Shown here in pieces: positions 1 through 4,020 of a stretch of DNA of 4,217 bases. Position 1 is the stretch's first letter; each line of letters opens with the position of its first letter. A model generated the notes under the pieces. That model made no database searches. It was not told where the DNA came from and worked only from the letters and a program-made list of their open reading frames with translations. Source of the stretch: a virus (lineage: Duplodnaviria; Heunggongvirae; Uroviricota; Caudoviricetes); the IMG/VR virus record IMGVR_UViG_2609459830_000018, positions 1 through 4,217 of that record; one strand, given 5' to 3'. Both the position numbers and the translations under genes were made by a program.

Positions 1-280
<280 letters not shown>

Positions 281-513
281 CCACTACACTTTTCAGCGTG
301 GGTTATTGAAGCCTGCAGAAGAAGGCTGGCAACAGATGCAACGCATCTGCGTACGGCCAGCATGACAAATAACGAGAAATGAACGTTCGGTTACAGGAGC
401 AGGTACCCACTGTCCTCCAACAATATTTCATCTTCATACCCGGCGGAACAAGACTTACCCAGCCGGGATGTACAGAATAACAACAGAGTGATAATTAATT
501 TCTGATGAAATAA

Positions 514-1178: not shown

Positions 1179-1403
1179 TCAACACACTGGCTGTAATGCA
1201 GCGGATACCATGCGGCATTTAGCGGCATTCATCGTACACTCAACGGTTAGCTCTTCATTCGTGGCATTCACCTGAAAGGTCCGGGAGTGTAATTGCGTAC
1301 ATTTACCACTGAACGAACCTTCAACAAGAACACGACCACGCTGCAAAATACGGAACAGAATTGTTCCCTGAAAAGGCTTTACGGTTACCAGTAATTTCTT
1401 CAT
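1179..1403 (-). CDS. Hypothetical 74-aa protein, translationally coupled to Rz (ATGA overlap)
   Basis: ATG at 1403..1401 overlaps the Rz TGA stop (1402..1400). GGAGGA sits immediately upstream. No hydrophobic segment and no domain I recognise. Confidence 0.45.
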
Positions 1404-1900
1404 ATATCCTCCGGATAATAAAAAGCCAGCTTAGTGCACTGAGTGCGGATATATTCCTGCGCCCCTTCCAGCTGCTTCTGCATTGTCATCAACCGTTCTC
1501 TGAGGATGAAATAATCCCGTTCAGCGGTGTCTGCCAGTCGGGGGCCGGTTGCATTATCCACGCCGGAGGTGGTGGGGGCTTCACGCACGGAGCCTGGACA
1601 GGTGGCGTTGATCCGCAGGCGCTTACGACCAGCGGCAACGTCAGCGCGAAGAGTTTCATTTTCAGCTCTCGCATCGGCTAATTCCCTCGAGTATTTTGCA
1701 TCGAGCGCAGCAACATCGCGCTGGCGCACCTGCATATCAGTAATGGTTGCGTTCGCCAGCTTCAGTTCACTGGCTTTGTTATCGCGCTGCGCTTTGTAGG
1801 TAATCGCGTTATCACGGTAATGGTCTGTTGCCATCCACAGCGCACCACAGGCCACCAGCAGAATAACGATAAACGCGGAAAGCATTCGGTTTATGTTCAC
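1400..1900 (-). CDS. Rz: i-spanin (Rz), inner-membrane spanin subunit
   Basis: Translation ...[45 protein letters not shown]...VAAGRKRL...[34 protein letters not shown]... is near-collinear with lambda Rz as I remember it. N-terminal TM segment present. GTG start at 1900 overlaps the upstream ORF's TGA (GTGA); ATG 1885 is an alternative. Confidence 0.9.
1489..1674 (-). CDS. Rz1: o-spanin (Rz1), outer-membrane lipoprotein, embedded in the +1 frame of Rz
   Basis: Translation [61 protein letters not shown] has a lipobox (VSAC) and the proline-rich [26 protein letters not shown] core characteristic of lambda Rz1. It lies entirely inside Rz in another frame, the classic embedded architecture. Confidence 0.9.
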
Positions 1901-2028
1901 CCCAGCAGCCCCGACGAAGACAACATCATCCAGGCCATGGAAAGAAAAAGAGCAACCAGCATTAGTGAAAATGAAATGCCGACAATTACACAGAGGATCT
2001 TCGCCAGCGTTATGAGTTTGTCTGACAT
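1897..2028 (-). CDS. Small single-pass membrane protein (43 aa), function unknown
   Basis: ATG 2028..2026 is preceded by a strong SD (GGAGGA, 6-nt spacer). The stop TGA overlaps the Rz GTG start. Product [43 protein letters not shown] is dominated by one hydrophobic helix. Confidence 0.55.
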
Positions 2029-2042
2029 GCTTAATCCTCCCT

Positions 2043-2225
2043 TCACGATTTCAACGCAATGACCAGTTTTGCCAGCCCATACAGCATCGGGGACACAGCA
2101 ACACCGACCGCCACCCACTTAATGGCAAAAGCCAGTGCTCTGCTGATGTCATCAGTTACAGGCGCTTTCAGTTCAAGGCCGTTTTTCATGGTCAACCTCA
2201 ACAGAATTCGTTTATACTTCGCCAT
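2043..2225 (-). CDS. Small membrane protein (60 aa) with basic N-terminal region and C-terminal hydrophobic helix, function unknown
   Basis: ATG 2225..2223 is preceded by AGGGAG. Product [60 protein letters not shown]. Stop is 14 nt upstream of the next gene's start. Confidence 0.5.
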
Positions 2226-2258
2226 GTTCTCCCTTGCCTTACTCAAGGTCAGAAACAC

Positions 2259-2296
2259 AAAACCCCGCTTGGTGCCAACAAACGGGGTTTTTACTT
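2259..2296. terminator. Bidirectional rho-independent terminator between the endolysin gene and the small membrane protein genes
   Basis: AAAACCCCG (2259-2267) pairs with CGGGGTTTT (2283-2291), with an inner TTGG/CCAA pairing. It is followed by a T-run on the plus strand (TTTTTACTTTTATT) and on the minus strand (TTTTGTGTTTCT). Confidence 0.6.
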
Positions 2297-2381
2297 TTAT
2301 TCACTTACGTTTCGCCAGTTCGCAGGATTTCATGTTATCCGCCCGCGTGGCCATGCCTTATTTTTCAGCAAAATATTCTGC

Positions 2382-2915
2382 TTATCTGTCGATACCCCAG
2401 CACGCCAGCGCGCTCTCCTGGTCACGACGGGATACCTGACCGTAGCAGTTGTTTGAACGAATACGGCAGTCTCTGCCACCGTCCTTAATCCACCAGCGAA
2501 TCGCCTCACATGCTCCCCTGCGATCACCAGCATTAATTCGTCTGTAAAACGTCGACGGGAAACACTTACCGGGACCAATGTTGTACGGACAGAATGACGC
2601 GATCCCCGCTTTCTGGGGTTCGGTCAATGGCACTTTGATGTTTTTCTCCACCCATGCCAGCGCCTTATCACGTTCGATGGCGTTAACCTGGTCGCATTTC
2701 TCCTTCGACAACTTCATGCCCGGGACGACAGGTTTACCATCCACCAGAATGGCACCGCGACAGATGGTCCAGATACCCGCGCCATCACGGTATGCCGTGG
2801 TGTGGTTACCTTCCTTTTCATCCAGAAACTGGTCGAGAATGTCAGGCGCAGGCGCACCAGCGGCAATCAGCGCCAGAACGGCAGCCGACAGGCCGTATTT
2901 GATTTTGGTGTTCAT
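2382..2915 (-). CDS. R: Phage lysozyme (T4-lysozyme-like muramidase) with N-terminal SAR (signal-anchor-release) type domain
   Basis: N-terminus MNTKIKYGLSAAVLALIAAGAPAPD is a Gly/Ala-rich weakly hydrophobic segment. Catalytic-triad context E..(8)..D..(5)..T is present in EGNHTTAYRDGAGIWTICRG. Overall collinearity with P1 Lyz / phage 21 R type endolysins as remembered. Paired with a pinholin upstream. Confidence 0.88.
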   Translation of the reverse strand: MNTKIKYGLSAAVLALIAAGAPAPDILDQFLDEKEGNHTTAYRDGAGIWTICRGAILVDGKPVVPGMKLSKEKCDQVNAIERDKALAWVEKNIKVPLTEPQKAGIASFCPYNIGPGKCFPSTFYRRINAGDRRGACEAIRWWIKDGGRDCRIRSNNCYGQVSRRDQESALACWGIDR

Positions 2916-2951
2916 GGATATATTAAATATTCAGCCGCTGTCCCTGGCCCA

Positions 2952-3509
2952 CTAAATACGCACTTTAAGATAAGTCAGCCCCGGATGAAGCCAGTAAGCC
3001 GGCACTTTTTTAAAGGGGGGAGTATTAAAATCACGAAGAAGAGCCTCCCGCACAATTGCATCCTTATCAGCACCACTGGCCAGCGCTTCAATCTCAGCGG
3101 CTACCTGAAGATATCCCATGCAACGGCCAACGCGCTTCATCAGCCCCTGCTTTTTATTGTTCTTCAGGTAATCAATGGCAAATTCAATGAGCTCCTCACT
3201 GTGCTGGTGCAATGGAGGTGTTACTTTCCCATTTTCTGAGATGGTTATTTTCCCGGCATCACCGGATACAACAAAGGATGGCCGGTTACACTCCCATTCC
3301 AGGTTACTGAAATTATCATTATGAATACTGAAACACTCTGAGAGATTTCTGCTCATCACTTTCCGACAATAATCGTCAAACGCAGCAAACTGCTCATCGC
3401 GGCGTTTTTTTTCATCTTCAGAAGGCATCAGCGTCGACAGTTTTTTATTCAGTTCAGCAATTTCATTTTCCAGACGACTGAAGCGCTGATTCATTTCTTC
3501 ATGGTTCAT
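2952..3509 (-). CDS. Hypothetical soluble protein (about 185 aa) inserted between holin and endolysin genes
   Basis: ATG 3509..3507 has GGGGAG 8 nt upstream. The ORF begins 4 nt after the holin stop and ends 36 nt before the endolysin start. N-terminal about 45 residues are charged and heptad-like (coiled-coil-like). No TM segment or signal peptide by eye. No family recognised. Confidence 0.6.
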   Translation of the reverse strand: MNHEEMNQRFSRLENEIAELNKKLSTLMPSEDEKKRRDEQFAAFDDYCRKVMSRNLSECFSIHNDNFSNLEWECNRPSFVVSGDAGKITISENGKVTPPLHQHSEELIEFAIDYLKNNKKQGLMKRVGRCMGYLQVAAEIEALASGADKDAIVREALLRDFNTPPFKKVPAYWLHPGLTYLKVRI

Positions 3510-3512
3510 CAC

Positions 3513-3719
3513 CTAATCTCCCCGGGCAGCCTTGCGACGGTCCTCTCTGATTTTGAAATACAGGTTAGTCAGATACGTCAGCAGGCCAAACAGCAGACTC
3601 CCCAGCACACCTATCGCCACCCACTGGGACGGAGAGACTTTGTCCAGCAGCTGCAGTAACCAGTATCCCGTCCCCACCGCTGACGTGGTGTATGACACAC
3701 CCGTTGTGATTTTTTCCAT
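3513..3719 (-). CDS. S: Class II holin (pinholin), phage-21 S-like
   Basis: Product [68 protein letters not shown] (68 aa, two hydrophobic segments, charged C-tail) is near-identical in pattern to the S21/EssD pinholin as I remember it. Sits directly upstream of the lysozyme and spanins. Confidence 0.85.
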
Positions 3720-3764
3720 CTGATGTATGTCTCCGTCACCGCCGACAGAAAATGAAAGTAAAGG

Positions 3765-3799
3765 AAAACAAAAAGCCGCCAGTGTCGCCCACTGACGGC
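3765..3799 (-). terminator. tR'-like rho-independent terminator in the late leader upstream of the holin
   Basis: On the minus strand GCCGTCAGTG-ggcga-CACTGGCGGC (10-bp stem with one G-U pair) is followed by TTTTTGTTTTCC, about 45 nt upstream of the holin ATG. The position matches the lambdoid pR'-tR'-S arrangement. Confidence 0.55.
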
Positions 3800-3863
3800 C
3801 AACGCCGGGAGCCGTGATTATGGCATTCAGGCTCTGCTAAAAATGCCAGATAACATTCCGGCT

Positions 3864-3907: not shown

Positions 3908-3977
3908 CACCCATCACTGTCTGTCAGAAAATGTACTGCCAGATATAAGTATCATGTGAAACCCAACTATCCTTCTT

Positions 3978-4020
3978 AGCCAGTACTTCTCCGACGAAAG
4001 TCAGTACTGGCTGTTTTTTT
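3978..4020 (+). terminator. Plus-strand rho-independent terminator facing into the 3' end of the upstream minus-strand ORF
   Basis: AGCCAGTACT (3978-3987) pairs with AGTACTGGCT (4003-4012), a perfect 10-bp stem with 15-nt loop, followed by G+T7 (4013-4020). The minus-strand side lacks a T-run. Confidence 0.5.

Follow-up and report, generated by a model that had tools for sequence, protein, structure and literature searches.

Many phages of Escherichia coli carry a short set of lysis genes, and the locus considered here raises the question of whether a set in which extra open reading frames (ORFs) separate the canonical genes is exceptional, and of what those ORFs may do. The window, the whole stretch of 4,217 nucleotides of viral DNA that was analysed, was subjected to an ORF check which established the minus-strand order S-A-R-B-C-Rz-D, with Rz1 embedded in Rz. 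This cassette is very probably an ordinary lysis set of an E. coli lambdoid late operon, of the kind found in the Shiga toxin (Stx) phages H-19B and 933W, with passengers that reassort. Its features are as follows.

1179-1403, minus strand: ORF-D, 74 aa, predicted soluble all-beta protein, a small beta-sandwich in a confident AF2 model
1400-1900 (GTG start) or 1400-1885 (ATG start), minus strand: Rz, i-spanin (PF03245, E 3e-49)
1489-1674, minus strand: Rz1, o-spanin lipoprotein (PF06085, E 1e-21; lipobox VSAC)
1897-2028, minus strand: ORF-C, single-pass membrane peptide, 43 aa (phrog_4906, E 2e-23)
2043-2225, minus strand: ORF-B, 60 aa (phrog_1115, E 3e-42)
2259-2291, minus strand: terminator-like, GC-rich hairpin of 13 bp, followed by UUUUGUGUUU
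2382-2915, minus strand: R, SAR endolysin of T4-lysozyme fold, 177 aa (PF00959, E 1.4e-24)
2952-3509 (alternative GTG start at 3512), minus strand: ORF-A, 185 aa (phrog_1085, E 2e-111)
3513-3719, minus strand: S, class II pinholin of the phage 21 S family, 68 aa (PF04971, E 9e-33; phrog_9876/20 'holin')

The lysis genes and their junctions

A reading of the sequence alone had proposed that all four canonical lysis functions are present and apparently intact, and that extra ORFs lie at the S-R and R-Rz junctions and at the 3' end of Rz. Both points were confirmed, as S, R, Rz and Rz1 were found on the minus strand at the coordinates listed, with ORF-A between S and R, ORF-B and ORF-C between R and Rz, and ORF-D after Rz. 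The PF04971 match spans the full length of S, in which only the second transmembrane segment passes the Kyte-Doolittle threshold of 1.6. S lacks the dual-start motif for antiholin and holin, which reads MYQM or MKSM in relatives, and it has a single start because, in an alignment with relatives of 71 aa, the upstream Met codon of the longer form is ATA in the window. The N-terminal SAR segment of R, rich in Gly and Ala, is YGLSAAVLALIAAGA (residues 7-21), while the catalytic triad E35-x8-D44-x5-T50 falls within EGNHTTAYRDGAGIWT, which starts at residue 35. Rz and Rz1 represent an embedded two-component spanin, as PF03245 and PF06085 are both matched, cysteines are present in both proteins and Rz1, whose mature part is proline-rich, lies wholly inside Rz in the +1 frame. 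For Rz in relatives PGAP picks the ATG that corresponds to position 1885 of the window, while the final 12 codons of the gene belong to the ORF-D module, the boundary of which is at 1435.

The phage 21 module draws on the same protein families, with a P21 S-family holin, a lysozyme of the SAR type that bears the E-8-D-5-T triad, and a two-component spanin of embedded architecture, and the mechanism is therefore presumably shared. By analogy, the pinholin would build up and then depolarise the inner membrane; the SAR endolysin, until then membrane-tethered, would be set free to cut the murein, and the Rz/Rz1 spanin would finally take away the outer membrane. In phage 21 the second holin start yields the antiholin. 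Unlike phage 21, the window has a holin with one start codon only, and its core units are separated by 561 nt, 353 nt (to the GTG of Rz) and 0 nt, with four extra genes. The phage 21 lysis module has been described as comprising five genes (PMC12315714), and the holins of Stx phages are P21-family pinholins partnered by SAR endolysins (PMC8136144, PMC10462455).

The junctions differ considerably in their spacing. The TAG stop of S is followed directly by a GTG (3512) and 3 nt further by an ATG, either of which may start ORF-A; ORF-A and R are 36 nt apart; R and ORF-B are separated by 156 nt, within which the hairpin is located; ORF-B and ORF-C are separated by 14 nt; the stop of ORF-C overlaps the GTG of Rz (GTGA); and the start of ORF-D overlaps the stop of Rz (ATGA). 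The proposal that tight overlaps integrate the additional ORFs into lysis-gene translation thus held for the starts of A, C and D, which are coupled to the preceding stop, but no more than three of the six junctions are this close. A comparison of upstream sequences found no Shine-Dalgarno site upstream of R, and ORF-A may have captured the ribosome-binding site within the 3' end of S which in 933W would serve R directly.

A simple consensus scan, which could miss real promoters, found no sigma-70-like promoter on the minus strand within 1179-3719. In the absence of promoters of their own, A to D are therefore probably made only within the Q-antiterminated late transcript, and it is from the sequence that we infer both their co-transcription and their status as passengers. 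The hairpin is the sole one in the cassette and lies upstream of ORF-B, not downstream of any passenger; it sits at the left border of the R-Rz slot, and homology with other prophages stops just beyond it, at about 2227. Scans for other RNA features returned no tRNA and, from Rfam, nothing beyond two sub-threshold hits, and a structured RNA considered in the spacer from ORF-D to the gene of a TonB-like lipoprotein (960-1178) obtained a fold z-score of +0.73.

Three slots with exchangeable contents

The lysis regions of Stx-type lambdoid phages and prophages (H-19B, 933W, Stx2-86, PhiR12, JNE132847 and Qin) exhibit the same slot structure and the same alleles, with holin identities of 92-98%, and differ from the window only in the combination of modules. 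In the JNE132847 prophage the order S-A-R-B-C-Rz-D recurs unchanged, with DNA that is 94% identical; Qin of K-12 (essQ-ydfR-rrrQ-rzpQ) has an S-YdfR-R arrangement; and the published phages Stx2-86 and PhiR12 have a gene in the S-R slot, PhiR12 also carrying B and C. By contrast, the S-R slot of 933W is empty (S and R are 4 nt apart), Ant occupies its R-Rz slot and bor follows Rz, while in lambda S, R and Rz overlap. The compact lambda cassette, the S-R adjacency of 933W and a compact Salmonella cassette demonstrate that the core genes can adjoin.

At least 80% of the cassette was matched in 524 of 5426 genomes, and among complete E. coli genomes the exact order was found at 100% coverage in JNE132847 and three others. 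The passengers are more widespread, with ORF-A present in 811 genomes, B plus C in 2023 and ORF-D in 1133. A survey of 80 viral contigs carrying a near-identical endolysin found no case of S beside R or of R beside Rz, and both inner slots were always filled, the cassettes of this endolysin lineage being interleaved at 73 of 73 and 72 of 72 loci. The supposedly unusual density of accessory genes was consequently not borne out, since every surveyed cassette of the lineage is interleaved and the exact order already occurs in complete genomes. The modular architecture is already known, and the layout, albeit real, is common and annotated in many genomes; what would make it a characterised variant is present for the gene order but not for the extra genes, which have no annotated function.

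The contents of the three slots reassort, as 23 combinations were observed in 58 complete loci. Homology to other prophages breaks at gene borders, namely at 3505/2921, about 2226/1907 and 1435/1164. Positions 2229-3722 of the window are 98.7% identical to prophage L004, and positions 288-2921 are 99.5% identical to prophage L001, both matches covering the whole of R (2382-2915) together with the hairpin that follows; judged from these alignments the window is a simple recombinant. Homologous recombination within conserved core genes would swap the modules. The R-Rz slot contains small membrane peptides of the single-pass type in changing sets (here B and C), the S-R slot contains one family in different domain forms (here an ORF-A free of YdfR), and the slot after Rz contains ORF-D. 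The earlier suggestion of an accretion hotspot is upheld in that the junctions are exchangeable slots with reassorting contents, but the S-R slot is not open-ended, as it is filled by domain variants of a single family, i.e. YdfR, a YdfR-A fusion or A alone.

The cytoplasmic protein ORF-A combines a coiled-coil N-terminus with a C-terminal domain that is conserved and, as judged by alignment, is the C-terminal module of the long proteins of the YdfR/DUF1327 family. Its homologues of 287-296 aa have an N-terminal PF07041 domain, and the alignment of ORF-A to these fusion proteins is confined to the region C-terminal of DUF1327. Most relatives carry YdfR or the YdfR-A fusion in the S-R slot, rather than A alone, and a search with ORF-A among 1.8e9 representatives found only 42 clusters. 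Its AF2 model, derived from a 20-sequence alignment, is of low confidence (pLDDT 56), and PDB profile searches with ORF-A and ORF-D yielded no match. ORF-B is basic at its N-terminus, its one transmembrane helix (Kyte-Doolittle maximum 1.88) is C-terminal, and its homologues in E. coli, E. marmotae and Salmonella are always located between R and Rz. ORF-C comprises little beyond one helix (maximum 2.89); many variants carry it upstream of Rz, and in Stx2-86 it is left without annotation. Both B and C are members of a group of small membrane peptides with a single pass. ORF-C was also considered as a copy of the N-terminal helix of Rz, for which the alignments were no better than shuffles. Homologues of ORF-D occur in Salmonella as well as in E. 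coli.

What the passengers may do

As A to D are short, are all annotated as 'hypothetical' and match no family in Pfam (B and C tested at E <= 0.01; for ORF-A this includes DUF1327, PF07041) or NCBIfam, they might be reading frames that arose by chance, or decayed remnants, within a non-coding spacer. A frameshift in ORF-B of one genome and a pN/pS for ORF-C as high as 0.73 in one comparison would agree with this; nevertheless, it is very improbable. A, B, C and D all look like real genes: they match PHROG families strongly (E 2e-23 to 2e-111), they are preceded by correctly spaced GGAG-type Shine-Dalgarno sites, they are conserved across genera with conservative substitutions, and the fold modelled for ORF-D is confident. 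The pN/pS values of the accessory ORFs range from 0.15 to 0.73 (0.27-0.54 for ORF-A and 0.17-0.20 for ORF-B), below 1 wherever synonymous differences exist. Literature searches on genes inside the cassette brought up descriptions of the core genes only, and those with the protein accessions gave nothing.

Real genes in exchangeable slots could be cargo of the moron type, which would benefit the lysogen or block competitor phages in a manner unrelated to lysis. Like lambdoid morons such as lambda bor, the passengers are inserted at gene borders (where related phages have the two genes side by side), are variably present and deviate in GC content, with 44.8% for A, 46.2% for D, 47.0% for C and 49.2% for B as against 54-55% in S, R and Rz. 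The same slots elsewhere carry an antirepressor, a DNA methyltransferase and Bor, and, outside the cassette, distant ORF-A relatives are located between Q and the holin gene, adjoining HicAB. Classical morons have a promoter and a terminator of their own, whereas a consensus-only scan detected neither around any of the four passengers; with starts that are coupled to the genes upstream, A to D behave as late-operon genes and not as autonomous units. In addition, PADLOC gave no match at E <= 0.01 for A to D or for the TonB-like lipoprotein. YdfR of K-12 reportedly interacts with the catalytic half of RNase E, and perhaps also with RNA (PMC13232886), which would suit such cargo, but the interaction is carried by YdfR residues 1-72, the DUF1327 part (PMC13232886), which ORF-A lacks. 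On balance this role is possible, though rather unlikely.

Alternatively, one or more passengers, most plausibly B and C, might be lysis regulators within a six- to eight-gene lysis system, tuning pinholin triggering, SAR-endolysin release or spanin activity. Single-pass membrane peptides lie between the SAR endolysin and the spanin at 70 of 72 loci, peptides that are ORF-C-like or end in 'IRWW' adjoin the Rz start, and ORF-B holds the R-Rz position in Salmonella too. A small membrane ORF is found upstream of Rz in almost every variant, and B and D adjoin Rz likewise in Salmonella, in cassettes whose holin belongs to another family; such constancy of position could mean a functional linkage to the spanin and not passive carriage. 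A precedent for control of SAR endolysins is provided by small membrane-anchored proteins encoded beside them, namely the releasin gp25 of Mu (PMC9239132) and LydB, LydC and LydD of P1 (PMC9025707). To these the window's peptides show no sequence or family relationship, as neither B nor C matches DUF2730, the releasin family (Pfam, E <= 0.01), and the anchor of ORF-B is C-terminal, not N-terminal. The absence from the window's holin of the second start that gives the antiholin in phage 21 would leave room for a regulator, but the same B plus C pair accompanies both 68-aa and 71-aa holins and therefore does not compensate for the lost start. A derivation of the ORF-B helix from pinholin TMD2 was rejected, as the local alignment (z 4.6) was unsupported by profile comparison (hhalign probability 3.9%). 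Slot content furthermore reassorts freely with other modules, lambda lacks any insert between R and Rz, and the only gene that 933W carries there is the antirepressor gene, ant. Regulation of lysis by the passengers consequently appears improbable.

A broader proposal, which we regard as doubtful, is that the always-filled slots are not passive: the R-Rz peptides (B, C and the related 'IRWW' type) would be a fast-diversifying family that tunes the action of pinholin, SAR endolysin or spanin, and the S-R family (YdfR, the YdfR-A fusion or A) would be a conserved fifth component that, late in infection, acts on the RNA metabolism of the host. If true, a common cassette type would have regulatory layers that are absent from the phage 21 paradigm.

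Significance

The finding that the cassette is a typical lambdoid lysis set with reassorting passengers matters little as such, as the locus is a further permutation of the modules that hundreds of E. coli prophages carry. It does expose a gap, in that four 'hypothetical' families, each present in 15-37% of complete E. coli genomes, persist within a well-studied set of phage genes. The genomes and phages that carry them include Shiga-toxin phages and, because the release of Shiga toxin depends on this cassette, a passenger that altered the timing of lysis would have medical relevance.

Gene content and layout of the lysis cassette

In silico analysis based on an ORF listing, translation and Pfam, PHROG and NCBIfam scans placed the cassette on the minus strand in the order S-A-R-B-C-Rz(Rz1)-D, in which four extra ORFs (A to D, here termed passengers) are interleaved with the core lysis genes:

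3513-3719, minus: pinholin S (PF04971, E 9e-33)
2952-3509, minus: ORF-A (phrog_1085)
2382-2915, minus: SAR endolysin R (PF00959; N-terminal segment YGLSAAVLALIAAGA; triad E35/D44/T50)
2043-2225, minus: ORF-B (phrog_1115)
1897-2028, minus: ORF-C (phrog_4906)
1400-1900, minus: Rz (PF03245)
1489-1674, minus: Rz1, embedded in Rz (PF06085, lipobox VSAC)
1179-1403, minus: ORF-D (phrog_2571)

The interleaved order and tight junctions reported by the sequence-only reading are both present. An ATG lies 3 nt past the S stop, and the stop codons of C and Rz each overlap the next start, namely the GTG of Rz (GTGA) and that of D (ATGA). Three junctions are looser (A-R 36 nt, B-C 14 nt and R-B 156 nt), with a 13-bp terminator-like hairpin inside the R-B gap at 2259-2291. 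A search for sigma-70-like promoters on the minus strand inside the cassette found none, and owing to this and to the coupled starts the passengers are probably co-transcribed. Their GC content is 45-49%, as compared to 54-55% for S, R and Rz.

Each passenger matches one PHROG family that has no assigned function (E 2e-111 to 2e-23) and has a GGAG-type ribosome-binding site that is normally spaced from its start. Homologues, which for ORF-A are confined to E. coli and for ORF-B and ORF-D extend to Salmonella, are numerous and show conservative substitution patterns. Against orthologues in other prophages, A, B, C and D gave pN/pS values of 0.27-0.54, 0.17-0.20, 0.30-0.73 and 0.15-0.51, respectively, and the core genes S, R and Rz values of 0.06-0.19, 0.02-0.15 and 0.31-0.38. 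Because the counts are small, these serve as indications only. All four ORFs are very probably genes, and their reading as chance ORFs is effectively excluded.

Slot contents, recombination and prevalence

The exchangeable intervals, or slots, were surveyed by mapping 15 query proteins on the best 80 IMG/VR loci with an endolysin at least 95% identical to that of the window, a sample which covers one endolysin lineage only and may include near-duplicate prophages. The S-R gap measured at least 382 nt in all 73 loci and contained YdfR (36), a YdfR-A fusion (22), A alone (13), A then YdfR (1) or unidentified content (1). The R-Rz gap was at least 309 nt in all 72 loci, 70 of which carried sets of small membrane peptides (sm45+C+B+sm28, 23 loci; sm45 alone, 20; B+C, 20; Ant+C, 5; B+sm28, 2). 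After Rz, 31 of 65 loci had no tested gene, 21 had D, 10 a TonB-like lipoprotein and three had both, and the 58 complete loci displayed 23 distinct combinations. Interleaving is the norm for this endolysin lineage. The passengers, and chiefly the membrane peptides among them, may play a part in lysis, as is suggested by the constant place of these peptides beside the spanin and by precedents such as the releasin of phage Mu (PMC9239132).

Positions 2229-3722 are 98.7% identical to the OkiPb01713 prophage (L004) and positions 288-2921 are 99.5% identical to the PS1Thumoskin9 prophage (L001), the two matches sharing all of R plus the hairpin behind it; on these alignments the window is a recombinant. 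Homology to prophages with other slot contents ends at gene borders, with breaks at 3505 and 2921 flanking ORF-A, about 2226 and 1907 flanking B+C, and 1435 and 1164 flanking D. The final 12 Rz codons come with the D module itself, which creates the ATGA overlap.

While the slots are real, the suggestion that such a density of accessory genes is unusual did not hold, as the arrangement is very common in E. coli and is already known and annotated in public genomes. The cassette is matched by 444 phage records, mostly Stx-converting phages. Of 5426 complete E. coli genomes, 4979 match part of it, 524 match at least 80% of its length, and four carry it collinearly with 100% coverage. Counted singly in the complete genomes, A is present in 811, D in 1133 and the B+C segment in 2023. 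The annotation of JNE132847 (holin, hypothetical, lysozyme, hypothetical, hypothetical, lysis protein, hypothetical) is exactly S-A-R-B-C-Rz-D. Related orders are essQ-ydfR-rrrQ-rzpQ/rzoQ in K-12 Qin, S-YdfR-R-Ant-Rz-bor in Stx2-86 and S-DUF1327-R-B-C-Rz in PhiR12, whereas in 933W R directly follows S, then Ant, Rz and bor, and the lambda cassette is fully compact. Public annotation overlooks some of these small genes, among them an ORF-C-like frame in Stx2-converting phage 86 and ORF-D after Rz in Stx2_95 (L002); missed or further small genes lie at about 4345-4490 in comparison locus L011, at 5686-5772 in L004 and at 3370-3507 in L005.

Translation starts, individual passengers and flanking features

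In every variant the gene behind S begins 3-4 nt past the S stop and uses GGGGAGA inside the S 3′ end, this gene being R in 933W, ORF-A in the window, and YdfR or ORF-A elsewhere. Upstream of the displaced R (..AATATATCC ATG; 2916-2951, minus) no recognisable Shine-Dalgarno sequence was found, and since GGGGAGA (3510-3530, minus) serves the gene directly behind S, slot occupancy should alter R translation relative to S. Two ancestral ATG starts read ATA in the window allele (3720-3728 and 1886-1900, minus): one is the upstream Met of the 71-aa holin, so that the 68-aa form alone remains, and the other is the MNR start of Rz, whose translation must begin at GTG 1900 or at ATG 1885. With GTG as the start, an arginine is retained ahead of the membrane helix; PGAP picks ATG in relatives.

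The full length of ORF-A aligns to the C-terminal portion of proteins of 287-296 aa with a DUF1327/YdfR N-terminus. Residues 1-72 of K-12 YdfR, a part absent from ORF-A, are reported to bind the RNase E catalytic half, and YdfR perhaps also binds RNA (PMC13232886). An ORF-A profile search returned only 42 clusters among 1.8 billion representative proteins, and its AF2 model was poor. Distant Salmonella relatives have an N-terminal domain, a coiled coil and a conserved C-domain in that order, the first giving no Pfam match and by eye showing a DUF1327-like sequence pattern. In two of these the gene lies between the Q antiterminator and holin genes, adjoining the toxin-antitoxin pair hicAB, and the sole contig extending past the holin has a compact lysis cassette, suggesting that the ORF-A family is late-operon cargo not tied to the S-R junction. 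In the Salmonella contigs (L012-L014) the next gene after these relatives is often a small one on the reverse strand, DUF1883-type or unassigned.

In ORF-B a basic N-terminus precedes a C-terminal helix, and ORF-C is hardly more than one helix. ORF-B is related to a 28-aa peptide preceding Rz in other prophages (z 6.0) and keeps its R-Rz place in Salmonella prophages with a different holin family; a resemblance of its helix to pinholin TMD2 was not confirmed. Other prophages have further small membrane peptides ending IRWW directly 5′ of Rz, one being a paralogue of the ORF-B helix. ORF-D, also directly behind Rz in Salmonella, has a confidently predicted small beta-sandwich fold (pLDDT 90) with generic structural neighbours only.

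The TonB-like lipoprotein (514-840, minus; 108 aa; GC 44%), variably present after Rz, is made up of a C-terminal TonB domain (PF03544, E 5e-15), with a lipobox VMGC, and has its own promoter-like site (873-900, minus). It could be a periplasmic TonB decoy blocking TonB-dependent phages or colicins; its PHROG 1267 label 'Rz-like spanin' looks like a mislabel, and a literature search for it found nothing. Positions 1-287 (plus) encode the C-terminus of an ISEc31-like transposase of the IS3 family, adjoining prophage DNA at base 288, whose equivalent in L001, the closest prophage, lies inside the YlcI/YnfO gene, so that the IS interrupts the interval between the lysis cassette and the HNH/terminase genes. 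Just past the esterase stop and antisense to the late operon, a strong hairpin at 3977-4020 (plus; AGCCAGTACU...AGUACUGGCU then U7; fold z-score -3.2; Rfam sub-threshold only, ncr982, E 0.31) could terminate an antisense transcript. The 300-nt gap from the end of the esterase (DUF6645/NanS-p-like) gene to S contains two terminator-like hairpins on the coding (minus) strand (3774-3800 and 3845-3862), and the DUF1378 and DUF826 ORFs of other Stx-type prophages are absent from it.

A lysis system with probable exchange points at its gene borders

Alternatively, the passengers may represent conversion or defence cargo. None of A-D matched the PADLOC models or is named in the literature searched, and papers on the Stx-phage lysis region treat core genes only (PMC8136144, PMC10462455). 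From family membership of the core proteins we infer a phage 21-type lysis mechanism, and the locus is best read as a lysis system of this type in which the gene borders would act as exchange points for late-operon passengers.
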